DNA from: a virus
IMG/VR virus record: IMGVR_UViG_3300045988_073070
Strand: one strand, 5' to 3'
Length of the DNA: 64,000 nucleotides
Shown: in pieces, positions 23,204-59,633 of the stretch
Position numbering within the stretch: position 1 is the stretch's first letter
How the letters are laid out: each line of letters begins with the position of its first letter
The notes under the pieces: model-generated
The model's input: only the letters and a program-made list of their open reading frames with translations
What the model was told of the DNA's origin: nothing
The model's database searches: none
Program-made: the position numbers and the translations under genes

Positions 23204-23854
23204 ATGACGATGGAGAAAAAACAAAAAATTTCAGAAACTTTGTACCATAGATACGAGTATCTTGCAAAGAAATATGCAAGCCGTATTTATTCATACGAAC
23301 AATTATCATACGAGTTCGATGATTTGGTGCAGGAGTTCCGAATAAAGATATTCACGTCAATAAAGAGCTACGGAAAGCGTTGGTTAAAATATCGGAAAGA
23401 AGGTTATGCGAAACCTGTGCCCTTGAAATATTATCTTGAAGCTGCTTGTGCTAATAAAATGAGAGACTTCATGAAATATATAACAAGGGAAAATTACAAA
23501 GTAAGGATTGACGAAATCAATTATGACTTTGGGGTGGAAATGGATTCCGAGATTATTCCAGAGCTTAACAAGTTCGTCATTAACGGAATAGATTTATTGG
23601 AAGGATTAACGGGAAAGGAGAGAGCAATATTCAGTTTGTATCTCCGTGGGCATAGCTCAAAAATTCTTACCAAAGTTTATTTTAACAACGCCAAAGAGAA
23701 GGCAAAACGAAAAGAAATTTTGGACAGTGGTGACGAGCCGTTTGGAGTAGCAGATATAATAGAAATGCAATGTAACTTCTTAATCAAAAAGTATGGTAGT
23801 GAATTGCAGCAACTCCGTAGGACTTTCGCAACTTACAACTTTGATGAAGAGTAA
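23204..23854 (+). CDS. sigma-70-family-like transcription factor (regions 2 and 4)
   Basis: Region-2-like 'DDLVQEFRIKIFTSIKSY ... YLEAACANKMRDFMKYITRE' and region-4-like 'LTGKERAIFSLYLRGHSSKIL'. First gene after strong promoter copy 1. Confidence 0.55.
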   Translation: MTMEKKQKISETLYHRYEYLAKKYASRIYSYEQLSYEFDDLVQEFRIKIFTSIKSYGKRWLKYRKEGYAKPVPLKYYLEAACANKMRDFMKYITRENYKVRIDEINYDFGVEMDSEIIPELNKFVINGIDLLEGLTGKERAIFSLYLRGHSSKILTKVYFNNAKEKAKRKEILDSGDEPFGVADIIEMQCNFLIKKYGSELQQLRRTFATYNFDEE

Positions 23855-23899: not shown

Positions 23900-25243
23900 A
23901 TGGCAACTAAATTGACCGCCAATGTGGCAAAGAGAGTTAAAGCATTAGGAATTAATGCAACAACTGACGAGGCAGCACGCCCAAAACTTCTGGAAATTCT
24001 GGAAGAGAATGGAATTGAGCAGATGGACGATGAGGACATCACAACTCTGGTAGAAATCGCAGAATCTTTCGTGGACGCAGATGCGGACGGGGATGATGAA
24101 GGAGACGAAGAAGCGGAAAACGATGCTTTGGCTGAAGAAGTTGAAGAGGAAGAAAAACCGAAAAAGGGAGCAAAGAAAGCTACCAAGAAAGCCGAGCCTG
24201 AACCCGAAGAAGAAGATGAGGACGAGGAAGAAGAAAGCGATGATGAGGAAGAATCTGACGAGGATTCCGAAGAAGGCGATGAGCTTGACGACATGGACAG
24301 AGGTGAGTTGAAAGACTACATCAAAGAAAACGAATTGGAAATCACCGTGAAGAAATCTTGGAGTGATGACGACATTCGTGAAAAAATCCGTGAAGCTATG
24401 GGCGATGAAGAGGATGAGGAAGAAGATGAAGCACCTGCTCCGAAAAAGAACGCCAAAACTGCGGCTGCTCCGAAAAAAGAGGAAAAGAAAGCCGACAAAA
24501 AAGAAGCTCCGAAGGCTTCAGCCAAAAAGGAAGACAAACCGAAGGCTGACAAAAAAGCTACTGCGAAACGTGGTAACAAACTTGACCCGAAGAACAACGA
24601 AGAAGACAGAAAACATTTTGACTTCTTGAAGAAGTTGTTCCCTGAAAAAGATTACATCTATGCTTGGGTTGCAAGTGCTGGCGTAACAATCAAGTACAAA
24701 GGCAAAAACAGCAACCGTTCTCTTATCAGCCTTGAAAATTGTACGCTCAAGGGAGAAGGAAAGAATGCGGTTATGACTTGCAACCTGTACCTGCTTATCT
24801 TCAACGGCAAATACGAAGCGTTGGAAAAAGCCGAAGTGGAATATGAAAAATGTTGGAGTGGTGCTCCGATGTTGAAAGCTATCGAAGTAAGCGAAGCCGT
24901 TGAGGTCATTGAATCTCTGAAAGACGAAATGGACAAGATGGTAGGCGGTATCGACAAGAAGTTGGGAGACAACCGCAAGAAAATGGAAGAAGGTTTGAAG
25001 AAGGACAAGAAAGCTGCCGGCAAAGCATCATCCAAGAAGGCTTCTGACGATGAAGAGGAAGAAGATGAGGACGAGGAAGAACAGCCGAAAGCAAAAGCGA
25101 AACCTGCCGCAAAGAAGGCTTCCAAAAAGGTAGAAGTGGAAGAGGACGAAGAAGATGAGGATGACGAGGAAGAAGCACCCGCACCGAAAAAGAAAGCGAC
25201 CTCAAAGACCGCTACCAAGAAAACGGTAAACAAAAAGAAATAA
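23900..25243 (+). CDS. highly charged Glu/Asp/Lys-rich protein with HeH/SAP-like modules and a central globular domain
   Basis: 447 aa with long D/E and K/A/P tracts. Module 'DDMDRGELKDYIKENELEITVKKSWSDDDIREKIREAM' is shared with the ORF at 31623. Confidence 0.5.
   Translation: MATKLTANVAKRVKALGINATTDEAARPKLLEILEENGIEQMDDEDITTLVEIAESFVDADADGDDEGDEEAENDALAEEVEEEEKPKKGAKKATKKAEPEPEEEDEDEEEESDDEEESDEDSEEGDELDDMDRGELKDYIKENELEITVKKSWSDDDIREKIREAMGDEEDEEEDEAPAPKKNAKTAAAPKKEEKKADKKEAPKASAKKEDKPKADKKATAKRGNKLDPKNNEEDRKHFDFLKKLFPEKDYIYAWVASAGVTIKYKGKNSNRSLISLENCTLKGEGKNAVMTCNLYLLIFNGKYEALEKAEVEYEKCWSGAPMLKAIEVSEAVEVIESLKDEMDKMVGGIDKKLGDNRKKMEEGLKKDKKAAGKASSKKASDDEEEEDEDEEEQPKAKAKPAAKKASKKVEVEEDEEDEDDEEEAPAPKKKATSKTATKKTVNKKK
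24287..24400 (+). repeat. HeH/SAP-like module, paralogous copy A
   Basis: Roughly two-thirds aa identity (by eye) to the module at 32742-32855. Confidence 0.8.
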
Positions 25244-25272
25244 GCCCAACCAGACTTATTGTAATTGGAAAG

Positions 25273-25306
25273 GGAGTAGCTTGTAAAAGTTGCTCCTTTT
25301 CTTTTC
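25273..25306 (+). terminator. rho-independent terminator (loop TTGTAAAA family)
   Basis: GGAGTAGC / ttgtaaaa / GTTGCTCC followed by TTTTCTTTTC. Confidence 0.75.
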
Positions 25307-25385: not shown

Positions 25386-26585
25386 ATGGAAATTCCGAAA
25401 AACAATTGCTTTTTTCCCGATTATGGAGTGGCGAAAGTAGAAACGTTTGGGATGTTGTACCCTGTAATTAATGATTACATCTTAACCAACAAACAAAAAG
25501 AAGAAAGCCGAGCAGGAGATGTAAAGGAACTGCTGGACGTCAAAACAATCATAACCAATCCTTATCAACGTTGCGTTGGCGGTTATGGTAGAGACATCAA
25601 TGTATTCTTTCTTCTTGCCGAAGCTATGTGGATAGCTGTTGGAAGAAAAGATGTAGAGTTTTTGGAAATATTCAATTCACGTATGAAGGACTTCAGTGAT
25701 GACGGAAAGACTTTCCACGCACCATACGGATTCCGATTGCGTCATTGGGGTATTCGTACCGAAGACAAATATGAAAGCGGAGTTAATGCCGCTCAAGGAT
25801 ATGACCAAGTAGCAGATGCAATACGGCTCTTGTCCGAGAATCATAACACACGTCAGGTAGTTATGGCAATATGGAATCCGAGTTTTGACTTGGGAGCGAA
25901 AAGCAAGGACATTCCTTGTAACGACCTTGTGATGTTGAAGATTCGTGATGGTAAGATGGTCACCACAATTCAGAATCGGAGTAATGACCTTCATTGGGGA
26001 TTGCCGACAAATATATTCCAATTCTCTTTCTTGACCGAGATTATGGCGACTTGTCTTGGTATCGAATTGGGAACACAAACACACAACTCTCAAAGTCTTC
26101 ATATTTATGATTGGAACGGTACGGCAAAGAAGATGCAAGAAATCTTCAAGGCTTCGGGAACGGGGCATTCACTTTATGAAGCTACGCCAGCCGAAGCGAA
26201 ACCGATGGACTTTGCTTTCAATCATGAGGTTGCAATTAACCGTCTCCGTGAAGTAGATTCACATTTGAATATCGTTATCGAAAATCTTCTCAGGATAAAG
26301 AATGGAGAAGATGAGATACAAGACGAAATTAAGCAGCTACAAGACTTTTCAACCTTCTTCTTTAATACTTACCAGCTCCTGAAAATATACGTGCTCTACA
26401 AGCATAAAAACAAGCTGGCTAAAACGGATATTGAAAAGGATGCTATTCGCAAAACAGCGATAGCCGAAATTGAACTGTTGGAAGCCGAAGGAGCAAAAGA
26501 TTGGGACATGGCAATACTTGCAAAGAACTTCTTTCACGCAAGGTTAAGTAAACCAATGAAGCATAAATATCTTGGGAAGCTATGA
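25386..26585 (+). CDS. thymidylate synthase (ThyA)/dNMP hydroxymethylase superfamily enzyme, atypical
   Basis: 'YGFRLRHWG', 'WNPS', catalytic-Cys context 'DIPCNDL' (Cys codon 25917-25919) and 'NRSNDLHWGLPTNIFQF' align with ThyA 'YGxQWR', 'WN', 'PCH' and 'RSxDxxLGxPFNI'. About 100 extra C-terminal aa. Confidence 0.8.
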   Translation: MEIPKNNCFFPDYGVAKVETFGMLYPVINDYILTNKQKEESRAGDVKELLDVKTIITNPYQRCVGGYGRDINVFFLLAEAMWIAVGRKDVEFLEIFNSRMKDFSDDGKTFHAPYGFRLRHWGIRTEDKYESGVNAAQGYDQVADAIRLLSENHNTRQVVMAIWNPSFDLGAKSKDIPCNDLVMLKIRDGKMVTTIQNRSNDLHWGLPTNIFQFSFLTEIMATCLGIELGTQTHNSQSLHIYDWNGTAKKMQEIFKASGTGHSLYEATPAEAKPMDFAFNHEVAINRLREVDSHLNIVIENLLRIKNGEDEIQDEIKQLQDFSTFFFNTYQLLKIYVLYKHKNKLAKTDIEKDAIRKTAIAEIELLEAEGAKDWDMAILAKNFFHARLSKPMKHKYLGKL

Positions 26586-29500
26586 CCGAAAGTTTACAAA
26601 AATGGATTGAAGAAAATCATTTGGTAATATCAGAATCGTCTTTGAATGGTTCTGATATTATCTCTATTGAAGGCATGGGAACATTCTTATACCTTCACCC
26701 GTTTGACGGGAAAATAATTGACGAAGATTTTGGCTTTATATTATCCGATGAAGAATTTGATATGTTGGATGAGGCGAAAGTGAACTTCATTCTATTTGAG
26801 TTTGGTCAAAAATTCTATTATTCGGGAATAAAGAAAACCAAAAACCGCTACAACGAATTAATCTTCAAACCTCAATTCAATGACTTCAAATATCTTGGAG
26901 TAACAAGCGAGGAATTTATAATGGACTTTTCTCACTTGGGCGTTCATTCGGAGTACGAAATATTGAATGGCTCTGGCGGTTGTGAGGTATGGGCAAAGAA
27001 AGCTAAATTCACTGGCGTTAAGGCTCTTGGAATATGCGACCGAAATACTTTGGCTGGAGCTTTATCATTCCAGAGCTTTTGCGATAAGTATGGCGTGAAA
27101 TCGGTTATCGGAGAAACCATAACCGTTGCCAAGGACTATGATGCTGAAAAAGAGAATCAAGAAACCTTTGAACTGAAAGCCTACATATTGAACTACGAGG
27201 GGTGGAAAAACCTTTTGTTGATTAATAAGGCTATGAACGTAGATTACAACGGATTCATTCCAGACAATGAATTGTATAAGCGAGGAAAGGGATTGGCGTT
27301 GGTCATACCCAAAGAATCGGAGTTCAATTACATTAAGGATGAAAAGAAGGAAGTTATCAAGCTCATAGCAAAGTATAAGAAGCATTTTACAAGAGTTTAT
27401 TATCAGATAGACACCGTTGAGTACGTTTCGGATTCTTTATTCAAGAAGCACTTGGAAAACATTGATACATATATCTGCGAATATAAGAAATATGTCAAAC
27501 CAATTCTCATAAATGATTCCTACTATCTTGACCGTGAAATGCACGAGTTGAAAGGAGTTCTGAACAAGGTATTAGGAAAAGCAGCACCCGAAGCATTGAA
27601 CCAATATTTCAAGAGTTGTCGAGAAACGTTTGATGAATATGCCGATTGGCTTGACGAGGTTGAACCGTTATTCCAGACAATCATAGAAGGTATTGAAAAT
27701 GCCAACCGATTAGCAGACCGAGTTGACTTCAAGATTCCTTCGGGAGAAAGAAAGCTGCCTCACTTCGAGGTTGATGACCCAGTAGCACTGTTCTTCGATA
27801 TGTTGGAGAAAGGAGTTCAAGAACGTCTTTCACATCTTCCAAAGAAAGAGTTTGAAGTGTATATGAAACGCTTGGAAATCGAATGTAATGTAATTGTACC
27901 GAATGACTTGGTTGATTACTTTATGATTCTTTGGGATATAATCAATTGGTGTAAAAAGAATGGTATAATGGTAGGCACTGGACGTGGTTCGGTTTGCGGT
28001 AGTCTTGTCGCTTATTGTTTACACATTACAGATGTTGACCCATTGAAATACGGATTGATGTTTGAACGTTTCTTGAACGAAACACGTGTATCGGGAGAGC
28101 GAGCAAAGTCAGCCGATAGTATGCCCGATATTGATGTGGACTTTCCAACGGAACACCGAGATGCGGTGAAGAACTATATCAAGGATAAATATGGGTATGA
28201 TTACACTTGTTCTATCGGAACGTACACCCGAATGAAACTCAAGACTTGCTTGAAGGACTTCGCCAAAGTAAAGGGTTTGCCGTTCGATGTAATGAATAAA
28301 CTCACGAAGGATATTGACGACCAAATTGAATACACTTGGGGAGACTTAATTGAATACGCAAGTAAATCGAAAGCCTTGTTCAAGTTCGTTCAGGAGAATC
28401 CTGATATTGTTCATTTGACGAAATACGGCATGTTACAATGCAAGGCTGCTTCGGTTCACCCTTCTGCTGCGATTATAGTTCCAAAGCATACGGTTGATGG
28501 AACAAACCGAGAAATTGATATTTGGGAATGGATGCCCGTTAAGAAAATTGATGGCGTTCTTGTATCGGAGTGGGAAGGTAAATACATAGACAAGTCTGGA
28601 TTCTTGAAAGAAGATATTTTGGGACTTAATCAGCTTGATAAGTTCAAGAGTATGGAGATATTGATTCAGAAGAACTACGGGAAAAAGATTGATTGGAATC
28701 AGATTCCTTTGGACGATGAAGAAACATTCAAATATTTCAAGAGAGGTTGGAATGAGGATGTATTCCAATTTGGTACACAAGGCTTGATGAATTATAGCCG
28801 ACAAGTGAAACCTGATACTTTGGCGCAACTAATAGCCATGACGGCTCTATTCCGACCTGGCCCAATGGAGCTTAATGCACACTCAGATTTTGCCGATATT
28901 AAGAACGGAAAGAAGAAGCCAACATACGACTTCGGAATGGAAGAGATAACTGGGGAAACCTTTGGATTATACGTCTATCAAGAGCAAATCATGAAGGGTG
29001 TAGTTGTGGGCGGTTTAACCGAAGTTGAATCAGACATTCTCCGTACTACTATCAAAAAGAAAGACGTCAAGACACTATCATCATATGGCGAAAAATTCAA
29101 AGAAGGATATTCAAAATTATTGGAGAAAAACGGCATAGAGAATCCGAAGGAATATGCGGAGAAGGTATGGGCAAAATTGCTTGCTTTCTCTGGATATGGT
29201 TTCAATAAATCTCATGCTGCGGCTTATTCCATAATGTCCTATTGGAGCCAATATATGAAAGTTAATTATCCGTTGGAGTTTTGGACAACTTCTTTGCAAT
29301 ATGCCAAAGAGGGTGAAGTGCCATACCGATTAGCGGAGTTAAAGAAAACAGGCGTTGAAATCGAAATACGACCGCCAGATGTTAATTTCTCCGAGCAAAC
29401 ATTCACTTGTGACCCGAAAGAACAACGCATCTTCTTCAGTTTAACAAAGATTAAGGATGTTGGTGAAAAGGTAGTTCCATATATCATGGCTGAACGTGAG

Positions 29501-30121
29501 AAGGGTGGAAGATTCTTTTCATTGGAAGAGTTCGTTGAAAGAGTTCCGTCAAAGGTAAACAAGAAAATCATAGAGAGGTTAATTGTTGCGGGAGCTTTTG
29601 ATATTGTTGAAAATGTAAAAAATCCGAGAGATAGAAAGAAGTTGTTGCAATGGTATCTTGATTATAAGAAAGCCGAAATGCCGAAAGATTATCAAGTGCC
29701 CGAAAGTGAAACAAATTCATTTTGGGTATTCGAGCAAAAACGTTTGACGGGATTTGGTGAAGTAGATTATGAGACAATGATTCGGGATGCTATTCCAAAT
29801 AAAAGAGTGGCAAAGTTATACGTTAATGACTTTGAGTTCTCCAATACGAAGGAAGGCAAAGAAGCCACAATTGCAGGCAAGTTAATATACTACCAAGAAC
29901 GTAGCATCAAGAACGGAACAATGGTCAGCGTTAATATAGACTGTAACAATACTATCATACCCGTAACACTTTGGCCAGATGCGGTTGAGAGACTTCCTGA
30001 AAATATATCGGAGTATAAAAACCGAGTTGTGGCAATATCTGGACGGGTCAAGAAAGATAAGTTCAAAAACCAAAAAGTTCTCTATTCAGATGATAGAACA
30101 AAAATTTATATAATATCGTAA
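26582..30121 (+). CDS. dnaE: DNA polymerase III alpha subunit (DnaE-type, C-family)
   Basis: PHP 'HLGVHSEYEILNG', 'GICDRNTLAG', catalytic 'MPDIDVDF', 'FLKEDILGL', 'FNKSHAAAYS' and a C-terminal OB-like region. About 115-aa N-terminal extension. Confidence 0.95.
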   Translation: MTESLQKWIEENHLVISESSLNGSDIISIEGMGTFLYLHPFDGKIIDEDFGFILSDEEFDMLDEAKVNFILFEFGQKFYYSGIKKTKNRYNELIFKPQFNDFKYLGVTSEEFIMDFSHLGVHSEYEILNGSGGCEVWAKKAKFTGVKALGICDRNTLAGALSFQSFCDKYGVKSVIGETITVAKDYDAEKENQETFELKAYILNYEGWKNLLLINKAMNVDYNGFIPDNELYKRGKGLALVIPKESEFNYIKDEKKEVIKLIAKYKKHFTRVYYQIDTVEYVSDSLFKKHLENIDTYICEYKKYVKPILINDSYYLDREMHELKGVLNKVLGKAAPEALNQYFKSCRETFDEYADWLDEVEPLFQTIIEGIENANRLADRVDFKIPSGERKLPHFEVDDPVALFFDMLEKGVQERLSHLPKKEFEVYMKRLEIECNVIVPNDLVDYFMILWDIINWCKKNGIMVGTGRGSVCGSLVAYCLHITDVDPLKYGLMFERFLNETRVSGERAKSADSMPDIDVDFPTEHRDAVKNYIKDKYGYDYTCSIGTYTRMKLKTCLKDFAKVKGLPFDVMNKLTKDIDDQIEYTWGDLIEYASKSKALFKFVQENPDIVHLTKYGMLQCKAASVHPSAAIIVPKHTVDGTNREIDIWEWMPVKKIDGVLVSEWEGKYIDKSGFLKEDILGLNQLDKFKSMEILIQKNYGKKIDWNQIPLDDEETFKYFKRGWNEDVFQFGTQGLMNYSRQVKPDTLAQLIAMTALFRPGPMELNAHSDFADIKNGKKKPTYDFGMEEITGETFGLYVYQEQIMKGVVVGGLTEVESDILRTTIKKKDVKTLSSYGEKFKEGYSKLLEKNGIENPKEYAEKVWAKLLAFSGYGFNKSHAAAYSIMSYWSQYMKVNYPLEFWTTSLQYAKEGEVPYRLAELKKTGVEIEIRPPDVNFSEQTFTCDPKEQRIFFSLTKIKDVGEKVVPYIMAEREKGGRFFSLEEFVERVPSKVNKKIIERLIVAGAFDIVENVKNPRDRKKLLQWYLDYKKAEMPKDYQVPESETNSFWVFEQKRLTGFGEVDYETMIRDAIPNKRVAKLYVNDFEFSNTKEGKEATIAGKLIYYQERSIKNGTMVSVNIDCNNTIIPVTLWPDAVERLPENISEYKNRVVAISGRVKKDKFKNQKVLYSDDRTKIYIIS

Positions 30122-30131: not shown

Positions 30132-30773
30132 ATGTTAAGCAAAATTATTTTAGGCAAGTACCTGCAACGACTTGACAACATCAAGCAATGGCAGGAAATG
30201 GACGTTTTCAAGGAAGAAAGCGTGAGTCAACATTCGTATAAAGATTCAATTTTTGCGAGAGTATTATTGGAAGATATATTCGGCAACAATCAAAGTCCGA
30301 AGGTAGTTCAGTTCAAATTAGATGTAGTTACAAGAACACTTCTTCACGACTGGGATGAAGCCTTGATTCTACGAGACATGTCTCACGAGACCAAATACAA
30401 TCCTTACAACGGAGAGGAAATCAGAAGGTGCTTAAATGCCCTTTCCAATCATATTGCGTTGAATGAGTTCCGAGAGGTTGACGAGGATTCTTGCGACACG
30501 GATTCGTCACGTATGATGTGGGGAATGATTTGCGCTTGTCCAGAGCCAGTAAAGAGTTTTGCTAAACTATGTGATTGGATTGCGTTATTCTTTTATATGC
30601 AAAGGGAAAAGCATCTGGGCAATAAGGACTTGGAGAAATCTTGGAACATTGCGGCAAGTAAATTTCCCGAAGCGATTGACAATGTAATAAATGTGTTGAA
30701 GGGATATTTCCCGAACGAGAAATTGAACTTTGATGAATTGTATAACTTAAAAACAATTTTTGAAGATGAGTAA
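30132..30773 (+). CDS. HD-domain phosphohydrolase, YfbR-like 5'-deoxynucleotidase
   Basis: 'LQRLDNIKQW', 'ESVSQHS', 'LLHDWDEALI' and 'KLCDW ... EKHLGN' follow the YfbR pattern RL..I.RW / ENVSEHS / HD..E / K.aD...E..GN. Confidence 0.65.
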   Translation: MLSKIILGKYLQRLDNIKQWQEMDVFKEESVSQHSYKDSIFARVLLEDIFGNNQSPKVVQFKLDVVTRTLLHDWDEALILRDMSHETKYNPYNGEEIRRCLNALSNHIALNEFREVDEDSCDTDSSRMMWGMICACPEPVKSFAKLCDWIALFFYMQREKHLGNKDLEKSWNIAASKFPEAIDNVINVLKGYFPNEKLNFDELYNLKTIFEDE

Positions 30774-31068
30774 ACAGGAACAGGGTAAAGAGATGACCAA
30801 AGAAAGTATCAATGGCATCTTTGATGGCATGACTGATACGTTGTTGAAGAAGAATGCCGACTACAAAGGAGCGAGTTTTGACTTGGGTTTGAACGGGAAT
30901 ATGGTTCATATTTGGGACAAAGTTAGAAGATACAGAAGTATGGTGGAGAATCAGAATCACGGAATCACGCCAAACTTTGAAGGTATCGAAGACACTTTGA
31001 AAGATATTATTGGCTATGCCGTTATTGGCTTGCATATCTTGAAAAAGGAAAACGAAGAAAAGGAGTAA
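30766..31068 (+). CDS. DUF1599-like / MazG-like all-alpha nucleotide-binding protein
   Basis: 'LLKKNADYKGASFDLGLNGNMVHIWDKVRRYRSM' resembles the K.xDYG ... dK..R pattern of DUF1599/MazG-like proteins (from memory). ATG at 30766. Confidence 0.4.
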   Translation: MSKQEQGKEMTKESINGIFDGMTDTLLKKNADYKGASFDLGLNGNMVHIWDKVRRYRSMVENQNHGITPNFEGIEDTLKDIIGYAVIGLHILKKENEEKE

Positions 31069-47882: not shown

Positions 47883-48371
47883 ATGGAGCAAGAAATAGCA
47901 GCATTGTATGAACGTTTGTTACGTCAAGCCAAGTTCTACTATCCGAGAAGTACGGATGACGCATATGACCTTTGTAATGATACGATGGTAAAGATGCTAA
48001 CTAACCAAGACAAATTCCAAGAAGGTACAAACTTATACGGTTGGGCGTGTATGATTATGCGCAATCTCTTTATCAACGATTATCGAAGGACTTCCAGACA
48101 AGGCTTTGTAATGGAAAGCGAACAAGAAGGTGCGGATGTATTTGGACGGCTTGAACTCTTTGCTCCTGATACGGACGATTATTCAAGAGAATTGGACATA
48201 CGGGAAGCAATTGATGCACTACCAGAAAACGAGCGTGTTTGTATTAACTATTTGATTTGCGGTTATTCCTACGAACGAATGGCAGAGATATTTGAAGTAC
48301 CAATCGGAACGGTCAAAAGCCGTATTCATTTAGCAAGAAAGAAGTTACAAAAAGTCTTGACGAGATATTAA
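47883..48371 (+). CDS. ECF-type sigma-70 family RNA polymerase sigma factor
   Basis: Region 2 'DAYDLCNDTMVKMLTNQDKFQEGTNLYGWACMIMRNLFINDYRR'. Region 4 'LPENERVCINYLICGYSYERMAEIFEVPIGTVKSRIHLARKKL'. Confidence 0.85.
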   Translation: MEQEIAALYERLLRQAKFYYPRSTDDAYDLCNDTMVKMLTNQDKFQEGTNLYGWACMIMRNLFINDYRRTSRQGFVMESEQEGADVFGRLELFAPDTDDYSRELDIREAIDALPENERVCINYLICGYSYERMAEIFEVPIGTVKSRIHLARKKLQKVLTRY

Positions 48372-52709: not shown

Positions 52710-53159
52710 ATGACCAGAATAAATAGTGCTATTTCAGTAAGGTGTTTGACAGATGAACATTTACTTGCCGAGCATAGAGAGATTAAGAGACTACCAGCTT
52801 GTTACCTCAAAGCAAAAACTTCGGGAGCTTTGAAAAGAATACCGAAGGAGTTCAAATTGGGAACTGGACATGTTACATTCTTTCTTGATAAATTCGCATT
52901 CACTTATACGAGATACAAAGCTATTCATACTGAATGCTTGCGTAGAGGTTTTCAAGTTACCGATTATTCAGATTTATGGAGAGCAGTTGAACCTACTTCA
53001 CAATGGAAGTCCTACGAGCCTACGAAGGAAGAACTTGAGCTACTTATACAACGTATTACAGAGCGAATACAAGGCAGTAGCAAGACCTTCTTTCACTATG
53101 ATGGGAAAGCTATCACTAAGGGTGAAGCAATCGAAATATTAAATTGTAAAACAAATTGA
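52710..53159 (+). CDS. denV: pyrimidine dimer DNA glycosylase (T4 endonuclease V homologue)
   Basis: 'MTRINSAISVRCLTDEHLLAEHREIKRLP' and 'GTGHVTFFLDKFAF..ECLRRGF' align closely with T4 EndoV '[27 protein letters not shown]' and 'GAGHVTFFYDKLEF..ECLKRGF' (from memory). Confidence 0.92.
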   Translation: MTRINSAISVRCLTDEHLLAEHREIKRLPACYLKAKTSGALKRIPKEFKLGTGHVTFFLDKFAFTYTRYKAIHTECLRRGFQVTDYSDLWRAVEPTSQWKSYEPTKEELELLIQRITERIQGSSKTFFHYDGKAITKGEAIEILNCKTN

Positions 53160-53162: not shown

Positions 53163-53747
53163 ATGTTAATAAACAACAACCGTTTGGCCATACAAGAAGC
53201 ATTTATGTCTGGCAAGATAAAAGCTATATGCGGCTATCCAGGCATAGGCAAGACCTATCTAACAAATCAAGATTCAAGGTTTGTAGATGGATGGTTATCG
53301 GAACATCTTTACATAGACAAAGCAAAAGGCATACGCAATCCCGACTTTCCGTCAAACTATATTCGCACCGTTTCAGATATAATCAAGCAAGGAAAGATTG
53401 TTGTAACAGCAATGTCCGAAGAAGCAAGAGATGTATTCAATATGCTTGATATGCCATTCGTGGTTATATATCCCAACGCTTCGGAGAAAGACCGATATTT
53501 CAACATATACGATACCCGTCCAGACGTTCGGGAATGGATAAGCCTGAATAAACGGGTGTGGGATGATAAGATAAAGAGGATACAGGAAATGAGGGTGCCC
53601 ATAGGGTGCTATAAGGATGAAATACCAAAGGGAATGAATCTCACCGAGTATCTAACTCAACTGGGAGTGTTAAGCCTTGTAAAAGTGCCCGAATATGCCT
53701 ATATTGAAACAACGCAAAGTTATCAAGAACAAATAATACAATTATGA
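53163..53747 (+). CDS. P-loop NTPase/kinase-like protein
   Basis: Walker A 'GYPGIGKTYL'. Small (194 aa), kinase-sized. Confidence 0.45.
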   Translation: MLINNNRLAIQEAFMSGKIKAICGYPGIGKTYLTNQDSRFVDGWLSEHLYIDKAKGIRNPDFPSNYIRTVSDIIKQGKIVVTAMSEEARDVFNMLDMPFVVIYPNASEKDRYFNIYDTRPDVREWISLNKRVWDDKIKRIQEMRVPIGCYKDEIPKGMNLTEYLTQLGVLSLVKVPEYAYIETTQSYQEQIIQL

Positions 53748-59276: not shown

Positions 59277-59314
59277 AGAACGCAAGTATATAGTGTTTGA
59301 ATATTGTTTAATTT

Positions 59315-59327
59315 AACAAATTGTAAA
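59315..59327 (+). promoter_or_regulatory. start-codon-abutting motif
   Basis: 'aacaaattgtaaa' lies before the ATG at 59328. Confidence 0.55.
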
Positions 59328-59633
59328 ATGAAAAAGTTTGAATTAGTGCAAGCAATTGCCAAGGAAACGGGTTACACCCAAGAAGTAGTAAACAACGTGG
59401 TTGATGCAATGCAACCGATTATCGCAAACGCTTGTATCGAAGAAGGCGATGAAGTGAACCTGCCTGAGCTGGGTAAGTTCAAACGTCAGGTGTTCACGGC
59501 ACGTAAAGGACGCAACCCGTTGACGGGCGAAGCTCTTGACATTCCCGAATCACACACCGTTGGCTTCAAGGCTACGACCAAGCTGAAGAAAGTTATTCAG
59601 CCGAAGAAAGCCGCAAAGAAGGGTAAAAAGTAA
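59328..59633 (+). CDS. hup: HU/IHF-family histone-like DNA-binding protein with a Lys-rich tail
   Basis: 'MKKFELVQAIAKETGYTQ..', 'GDEVNLPELGKFKRQVFTARKGRNPLTGEALDIPESHTVGFKATTKLKK'. ATG at 59328 rather than the track's 59304. Confidence 0.9.
   Translation: MKKFELVQAIAKETGYTQEVVNNVVDAMQPIIANACIEEGDEVNLPELGKFKRQVFTARKGRNPLTGEALDIPESHTVGFKATTKLKKVIQPKKAAKKGKK

Follow-up and report, generated by a model that had tools for sequence, protein, structure and literature searches.

The stretch of viral DNA considered here (IMG/VR virus record IMGVR_UViG_3300045988_073070; 64,000 nucleotides, hereafter the window) carries, at positions 25,386–26,585 of the plus strand, a genuine open reading frame (ORF) of 399 amino acid codons whose product is related to thymidylate synthase (ThyA). 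From comparative sequence analysis, a structural model and the gene context, we conclude that this product is most probably a deoxyuridylate (dUMP) hydroxymethylase of the kind represented by SPO1 gp29, and not a thymidylate synthase. Nearly all plausible genes of the window lie on the plus strand, and the features of the locus are as follows.

25267..25302, plus strand: hairpin with a T-rich run, 3' of the preceding gene (-22.3 kcal/mol, z = -5.3; 0 of 200 shuffled sequences were as good).
25386..26585, plus strand: putative dUMP hydroxymethylase (deoxyuridylate hydroxymethyltransferase) of the SPO1 gp29 type, 399 amino acids (Pfam, PHROG, tblastn, tree, NCBIfam and structural model).
25917..25919, plus strand: codon for the nucleophilic Cys178 of the active site (C146 in E. 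coli), in the motif P-C-N ('DIPCNDL') (MAFFT alignment).
26010..26012, plus strand: codon for Asn209 (N177 in E. coli), at the pyrimidine-specificity position within 'NRSNDLHWGLPTN' (MAFFT alignment).
26232..26537, plus strand: C-terminal helical extension, residues 283–384, five predicted helices (AlphaFold2; predicted local distance difference test score, pLDDT, mostly 91–98).
26582..30121, plus strand: DnaE-type DNA polymerase III alpha with PHP, NTPase, finger and HhH domains (Pfam E 1e-62, 3e-39, 2e-22 and 3e-13, respectively).
30132..30773, plus strand: YfbR-like HD-domain 5'-deoxynucleotidase (Pfam PF12917, E 1.5e-11).
30760..31068, plus strand: DUF1599 protein, Pfam 'Nucleotide modification associated domain 1' (PF07659, E 3.6e-7; PHROG 1485, E 2.3e-17).

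The kinship of the 399-residue protein with ThyA is far above chance. It matches Pfam PF00303 (Thymidylat_synt) over residues 76–253 (E 3.9e-24; 85.6 bits against a cut-off of 24.3) and PHROG 5131 over residues 24–362 (E 1e-72). Alignment to E. coli ThyA by MAFFT, the source of all residue equivalences given here, shows that the ThyA residues R21, E58, Y94, R126, R166, S167, D169 (D201 in our protein), N177, H207 and Y209 are retained. The last two, which touch the 3'-OH of the deoxyribose in ThyA, correspond to H239 and Y241. Substituted relative to ThyA are H147 (to N), R127 (to Q), C168 (to N), L143 (to K) and F176 (to T). The ThyA segment with I79, W80 and W83 aligns with a gap or with F-S-D-D-G, and the C-terminal carboxylate segment is missing, a helical domain of about 140 amino acids standing in its place. 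I79, W80, W83, L143, F176 and the C-terminal segment are the parts of ThyA that position the folate for hydride transfer. All seven NCBIfam equivalog models of ThyA score below their curated cut-offs (22–78 bits against 108–427), with 77.9 bits (cut-off 174.55), 70.3 bits (327) and 56.2 bits (108.35) as the best scores.

An earlier note on this DNA, made from the sequence alone, had reported that the core aligns with thymidylate synthase including the catalytic cysteine, that this cysteine stands in a 'PCN' rather than a 'PCH' context, that the specificity codon 26010–26012 encodes asparagine, that the RSND part resembles T4 deoxycytidylate (dCMP) hydroxymethylase, and that the extra sequence in the 399-residue protein is helical. 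These observations are borne out by the Pfam match, by the alignment (C178 for C146, N for H147, Asn for N177), by T4 gp42, which does read 'MRSNDVVFG', and by the five helices modelled over residues 283–384. The description of the features as atypical or non-canonical is true against canonical ThyA alone, since P-C-N, N-R-S-N-D and a long tail are the rule in the protein's own family.

In a tblastn search against 50,697 phage records, enzymes of the SPO1, SP8, SP10 and CP-51 type came out on top (E 1e-40 to 1e-48 at about 40% identity; for SPO1 gp29, 40.7% and 3e-42), followed by those of M6-like Yuavirus phages (1e-31 to 2e-32) and then of Ralstonia phage RP13 and Maribacter phage Molly. The ViI-like Ackermannviridae gave 1e-20 to 1e-24 (ViI itself 1e-24) and Acinetobacter phage 15599 gave 3e-22; canonical phage td/thyA genes reached only 1e-6 to 1e-13. 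A profile of the core kept the same order (SP10 3e-59, SPO1 3e-56, E. coli ThyA 6e-16, T4 gp42 2e-8). The closest phage relatives, namely SPO1, SP10, the M6-like phages, ViI and 15599, are phages with 5-hydroxymethyluracil (hmU) or hmU-derived bases in their DNA. The phylogenetic placement that the earlier note had proposed was carried out as a distance-based neighbour-joining tree with 500 bootstraps. The protein belongs to a clade of gut sequences with 100% support, which a split supported at 85% leaves together with the SPO1/SP10 and M6-like/Rhodoferax enzymes. The canonical ThyA proteins group apart from it, also at 100% support, and no reference is more distant than T4 gp42.

The four motifs P-C-N, N-R-S-N-D, T-R-Q and F-S-D-D-G are common to our protein and SPO1 gp29; this signature was derived from the alignment of the present analysis and has no published definition. 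The Rhodoferax phage enzyme has all four motifs and the M6-like enzyme all except T-R-Q, where it reads R-R. The enzymes of SPO1, SP10, the Pseudomonas M6/YuA-like phages, Salmonella phage ViI and Acinetobacter phage SH-Ab 15599 carry P-C-N or I-C-N together with N/Q-R-S-N/Q/G-D, and F/Y-S-D-D-G at the position of ThyA I79-W80...W83; the last three share both the enzyme family and the signature residues with our protein. T-R-Q replaces the S-R-R of ThyA in SPO1, SP10 and ViI, while the M6-like and 15599 enzymes retain R-R. When 1.84 billion representatives were searched exhaustively with HMMER, 485 clusters scored E <= 1e-30. Among the best 150 representatives, 148 of which were informative, C178 and N179 are each conserved in 148/148 and N200 in 146/148; the specificity position holds Asn in 143/148, Asp in four and Lys in one. 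Asn209 is invariant in a 40-sequence alignment of the gut clade. As summarised in PMC8670742, an Asn to Asp switch at this position decides between uracil and cytosine (Hardy & Nalivaika 1992; Liu & Santi 1992; Graves et al. 1992), and Asn209 thus indicates a uracil substrate, i.e. dUMP. PHROGs, JGI and most GenBank phage records nevertheless label this family 'thymidylate synthase'.

Three family representatives from outside the window (P0248, P0284 and P0353) are 685–751 amino acids long and contain an insertion of about 300 amino acids exactly at the catalytic cysteine, with the junctions '...DRP|CLAGD...HN|CNDML...'. The insert looks like an intein that carries an HNH-type endonuclease, in which the +1 residue would be the nucleophilic cysteine. 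Gp76 of Mycobacterium phage Papyrus (L020:1111-2112), annotated as 'thymidylate synthase', combines hydroxymethylase-like F-S-D-D, T-R-Q-like and P-C-T motifs with Arg at E58 and Asn at D169; its gene adjoins genes for a DnaE polymerase and a nucleoside deoxyribosyltransferase, and its activity may be unusual.

The AlphaFold2 model, built with 40 homologues as input, has a mean pLDDT of 87.6 and a predicted template modelling score of 0.90. Its top match in the PDB, found with Foldseek, is MilA, the cytidylate (CMP) 5-hydroxymethylase of Streptomyces (PDB 5B6D, 5JNH, 5JP9), with a target TM score of 0.81 over 365 aligned columns. Many thymidylate synthase structures were also matched, every one of them lower (TM about 0.56–0.75, about 250–315 columns). 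The match to MilA takes in part of the C-terminal helical region, MilA having such a region of its own. In sequence, MilA scores E 6e-18, similar to thymidylate synthases; it differs from our protein in its low identity (about 21%) and in being a CMP/dCMP enzyme of antibiotic biosynthesis, and our protein is about 80 amino acids longer. With canonical ThyA (E. coli, phage td) our protein has the fold, the catalytic cysteine and the phosphate-binding arginines in common, and it exceeds these enzymes by about 100 residues. T4 gp42, which performs a hydroxymethylation, likewise has an 'RSND' motif and lacks the tryptophans of ThyA; it differs in having Asp179 ('FRNDYAW') where our protein has Asn209 (PMC8670742), and in its length of 246 amino acids without a C-terminal extension.

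The hydroxymethylases of this family are long proteins, with 383 amino acids in SPO1 gp29, 382 in SP10 gp188, 405 in the M6-like Pseudomonas phage, 346 in ViI and 375 in 15599 (342–405 across the family, against 264 for ThyA), and a comparable tail occurs in the Rhodoferax phage enzyme. Because SPO1 gp29 and its relatives are similarly long, the long C-terminal extension is a family trait. The sequence of the tail is lineage-specific: a hidden Markov model (HMM)/profile of the tail found no match in SPO1, SP10, M6-like, ViI or other hydroxymethylases. About 60 family representatives from the HMMER search align up to residue ~388, which shows the tail to be conserved within a sizeable sub-family.

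SPO1 gp29 resembles our protein in its core (40–41% identity, as also for SP8 and SP10 gp188), in the asparagine at the specificity position, in the four motifs, in its long C-terminal extension (383 against 399 amino acids in total) and in the location of its gene near a phage DNA polymerase gene. The C-terminal extensions of the SPO1 and SP10 enzymes, unlike the cores, are without detectable sequence similarity to ours. Our protein reads 'GLPTN' (compare 'GLPFN' in ThyA) where SPO1 gp29 reads 'GTFGAN'. The neighbouring polymerase is of the DnaE type here, whereas the polymerase gene of SPO1, which contains an intron, encodes a Pol I family enzyme.

The gene context was analysed within the window and in related contigs. 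The hairpin at 25267–25302 reads as an intrinsic terminator, which would make the hydroxymethylase gene the first of a new transcription unit. A simple terminator scan did not include this hairpin among its results, and a promoter scan around the hydroxymethylase gene gave counts at chance level. The stop codon of the hydroxymethylase gene and the start codon of the DnaE gene share four nucleotides (ATGA), the HD gene lies within 10 nucleotides of the DnaE gene, and the DUF1599 gene overlaps the HD gene by 14 nucleotides. This DnaE/YfbR-like/DUF1599 block is kept in relatives whose hydroxymethylase is just ~64–66% identical, and there too DUF1599 adjoins the HD gene. In Rhodoferax phage P26218, a YfbR-like HD gene lies directly 3' of the hydroxymethylase gene, and the same position is held by an annotated HD hydrolase gene in the Manatee Spring phage. 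We found nothing specific in the literature on DUF1599 in phages. The YfbR-like protein is a candidate thymidylate (dTMP)/deoxynucleoside monophosphate (dNMP) phosphatase; by analogy with the SPO1 pathway, whose hydroxymethylase works alongside a dTMPase, a dTTPase/dUTPase, a dNMP kinase and a dCMP deaminase (PMC8989533), it may act as the dTMPase.

Directly upstream of the hydroxymethylase gene, at 23900–25243 (plus strand), lies an ORF for a 447-residue protein with low-complexity regions rich in Asp/Glu and Lys at both ends and without a Pfam match, which is kept in relatives at 442–447 amino acids. Of all ORFs of the window, just those for the hydroxymethylase and for an HU-like protein gave tblastn matches in the hypermodification neighbourhoods of SPO1, SP10, ViI, an M6-like phage, 15599, RP13, Molly and the Rhodoferax and Manatee Spring phages. 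The HU-like protein, encoded at 59304–59633 (plus strand), is an HU/IHF-type DNA-binding protein (Pfam Bac_DNA_binding) with 38.6% identity over 83 amino acids to TF1, the histone-like protein of SPO1 that prefers hmU-containing DNA. Since the HU family is ubiquitous, the likeness to TF1 is merely suggestive.

The window is 100% identical to a JGI contig of 98,487 bp (L025). Near-identical contigs of 96.6–98 kb come from human-gut metagenomes, and 56 blocks of the public assembly collection contain the exact protein. No match was found when 20 kb of the window were compared with GenBank phages by megablast; accordingly, no cultured close relative is available. The DnaE polymerase is most similar to those of Bacteroidota phages. 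The motif TANNTTTG, the -7 promoter element of Bacteroidota, occurs 91 times against 65 +/- 8 expected, although its occurrences are spread over both strands. Together, this excess and the affinities of DnaE hint at the host, which is probably a member of the Bacteroidota and not a Bacillus.

For the remainder of the genome, a composite of the lineage was made by tiling the window with contigs L024, L025, L028 and L108, and everything in it beyond the end of the window is sequence of relatives. Where these relatives overlap the window's contig or one another, their identity is 91–99%. L024 is ~99.4% identical to the window over the last 7.2 kb of the latter, L028 is 93–97% identical to L024, and L108 is 100% identical to L028 in their overlap and 97% to L025. 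A dUTPase gene lies ~0.8 kb past the end of the window in related contigs (NCBIfam, 182 bits against a cut-off of 103). About 8.9 kb past the end, a stand-alone gene (L024:18943-20100) encodes a PF18723 protein of 385 amino acids (E 2.7e-48). It is homologous to SP10 gp186C, the C-terminal half of gp186, to Aergia_0047 of an M6-like phage and to Orf49 of 15599. The class of SP10 gp186C and ViI gp160 was named aG/PT-PPlase1 in Table 3 of PMC5889632. PF18723 (HMUDK_hel, aGPT-Pplase clade 1) is fused to a kinase in SP10, and more than 600 clusters are related to it, many of them on gut contigs of 95–125 kb.

The genomes of the M6/YuA-like phages, ViI and 15599 likewise encode PF18723 proteins, and they differ from our lineage in having a PF18748 kinase and a PF18724 amino-acid:DNA transferase beside or near the hydroxymethylase, neither of which is detectable here. 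Such a pair of 5-hydroxymethyl-deoxyuridine (5-hmdU) DNA kinase and transferase characterises the thymidine hypermodification system of M6, ViI, PhiW-14 and SP10. The pair has been defined experimentally (PMC8989533), and the 15599 homologue of our protein served as dUMP hydroxymethylase in PMC13458397. Five known 5-hmdU DNA kinases (PF18748; Walker A motif G-x-N-G-x-G-K-S/T) were used to build an HMM, which, with positive controls at 1e-68 to 1e-86, gave no match at E < 10 in the composite genome and 80 related loci, a negative that holds for recognisable homologues, very divergent or non-homologous kinases being beyond the reach of the model. No PF18724 transferase (aGPT-Pplase clade 2) was found in Pfam scans of the composite, nor any phmmer match to the M6 gp51-like protein of 15599. 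The scanned ORFs of the window and related contigs contain no dihydrofolate reductase (DHFR) and no second ThyA or ThyX.

Taken at face value, these genes suggest the following pathway. Cys178 would attack C6 of dUMP, and C5 would receive a methylene group from 5,10-methylene-tetrahydrofolate. The exocyclic methylene would then be resolved by water and not by a hydride from the folate, giving 5-hydroxymethyl-dUMP (hmdUMP) and tetrahydrofolate instead of dTMP and dihydrofolate, with Asn209 selecting uracil. The phage dUTPase would feed dUMP into the pathway, and the YfbR-like nucleotidase would drain competing dTMP. Some kinase, together with the nucleoside diphosphate kinase of the host, would convert hmdUMP to hmdUTP, which the presumably co-transcribed DnaE polymerase would build into phage DNA in place of thymidine. 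We infer that the DNA of this phage carries hmU or a derivative of it instead of thymine. The lineage has a partial pre-replicative hmU toolkit and one gene typical of hmU-hypermodifying phages; this gene, the PF18723 gene of close relatives, hints that hmU may undergo further processing within the DNA.

Upstream of the window start, within the structural module (L108:1354-4429), lie clustered genes for a radical SAM/SPASM protein of 318 amino acids, a 228-residue protein and a GT1-like protein of 479 amino acids. The 228-residue protein has an 'APHSDDA' motif recalling PIG-L/LmbE deacetylases and no Pfam match, and the GT1 match of the 479-residue protein is weak (E 2e-4, below the cut-off). 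With this cluster, a PF18723 protein that stands alone and no recognisable 5-hmdU DNA kinase or PF18724 transferase, it is conceivable, though doubtful, that this widespread lineage of human-gut phages of ~98–100 kb swaps thymidine for hmU and then modifies it by a route unlike the kinase-plus-transferase one, which could amount to a new thymidine hypermodification or a new activation chemistry.

The assignment as a dUMP hydroxymethylase draws on the tblastn and profile ranks, the tree, the sub-cut-off ThyA scores, the lost ThyA residues and the structural match to MilA, and it gains further support from the hmU-pathway genes beside the gene or elsewhere in the lineage. Several points weigh against it. 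The product is assigned from family placement, because the residues that decide between hydration and hydride transfer have not been established for dUMP hydroxymethylases. Identity to the proven enzyme SPO1 gp29 is ~40% and confined to the core, and the position of the gut clade as sister of SPO1/SP10 has just 46% bootstrap support. The dUTPase and PF18723 genes fall beyond the window, and their sequences come from close relatives rather than from the window's own contig. The NCBIfam 5'-deoxynucleotidase match of the YfbR-like protein (E 1.4e-7) is under its cut-off and the substrate of this nucleotidase is only putative, while a dNMP kinase for hmdUMP and a dCMP deaminase were not identified. 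Both the hydroxymethylase product and the replacement of thymine in this phage are predictions.

The earlier note had left the choice between a divergent ThyA and a dUMP hydroxymethylase of SPO1 type, holding that sequence alone could not separate them. The hydroxymethylase half of that statement is strongly supported and the ThyA half is disfavoured, the two being separable by sequence comparison, by structure and by the context of the gene. A divergent yet true thymidylate synthase, supplying dTMP for the synthesis of phage DNA, would be in keeping with the ThyA fold, with the full nucleotide-binding and catalytic set including Asn209, with the folate-binding aspartate retained as D201 and with the label used by databases and most phage records. 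It is nonetheless quite improbable, given scores far under every ThyA equivalog cut-off, the loss of I79, W80, W83, L143, F176 and the C-terminal carboxylate segment, nearest relatives in phages with hmU or hmU-derived bases, the lack of a DHFR partner in the scanned ORFs, and the presence of a nucleotidase and of a PF18723 homologue from hmU pathways. We also consider it unlikely that the protein hydroxymethylates a different pyrimidine or a wider set of them (dCMP, CMP/uridylate, or dUMP plus dCMP) or yields a different one-carbon end product. The top solved structure, MilA, is indeed a CMP/dCMP hydroxymethylase, a close environmental homologue is annotated as 'pyrimidine hmase', and four of the best 150 representatives carry Asp at the specificity position. 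However, Asn209 is present in our protein and the entire gut clade, the Asn to Asp switch is an established determinant of uracil versus cytosine (PMC8670742), the dCMP enzyme T4 gp42 is the most distant reference, and the residues corresponding to ThyA H207 and Y209 are retained. A ThyA-like protein without activity or with a regulatory role, such as a scaffold of the replication complex acting through its helical tail, might be imagined from the large, lineage-specific C-terminal domain and from the translational coupling to the polymerase gene; we judge this very improbable, as the catalytic and substrate-binding residues are all conserved in our protein and its family, which points to selection for catalysis.

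The 399-residue protein is a member, from an uncultured phage, of a known enzyme family and not a new kind of enzyme, and homologues near hypermodification genes in viromes have already been noted by Lee et al. (PMC8989533). The literature on hmU in gut or Bacteroides phages yielded nothing specific. Mildly new are the occurrence in an abundant gut phage together with DnaE, the lineage-specific tail, and the joint presence of a hydroxymethylase and PF18723 where neither kinase nor transferase is recognisable. If the dUMP hydroxymethylase assignment is true, a phage common in human-gut metagenomes would have hmU-based DNA, with a bearing on the escape of phages from host restriction and CRISPR and with effects on recovery by some library preparations and on nanopore basecalling. 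Annotations of 'thymidylate synthase' in viromes would then need rereading, because PHROGs, JGI and most GenBank records mislabel the family. The lineage is furthermore a natural case of a PF18723 protein without its usual kinase and transferase partners, and could aid in assigning the function of PF18723 in the hypermodification toolkit.

Further observations concern other genes of the window and of related strains. A 194-residue P-loop protein (53163–53747, plus strand; Walker A GYPGIGKT; PHROG 4182, function unknown) was considered as an hmdUMP or hmU-DNA kinase. It has no similarity to known 5-hmdU DNA kinases and was rejected as an essential member of the pathway; the gene is accessory, being missing from the near-identical strains L023 and L024, which keep the hydroxymethylase and PF18723 genes. 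A tRNA scan found none. An ECF-type sigma factor (Sigma70_r2 and r4_2, E 1e-10 to 1e-14) is encoded at 47883–48371 (plus strand), and a second ORF at 23204–23854 (plus strand) has a weak match to sigma region 2. Related strains contain mobile elements. In L026, one ORF of 918 amino acids at the terminase position (L026:1682-4438) has Hom_end_hint and LAGLIDADG matches and therefore probably contains an intein, and one dUTPase ORF (L026:4692-5780) is 362 rather than ~150 amino acids long. A GIY-YIG homing endonuclease gene is inserted between or beside the Mre11-like and SbcC-like genes (L006:19926-20579; L008:19371-20117). Finally, a T4 DenV-like pyrimidine-dimer DNA glycosylase (Pyr_excise, E 5.5e-11) is encoded at 52710–53159 (plus strand) of the window and is also present in L024.

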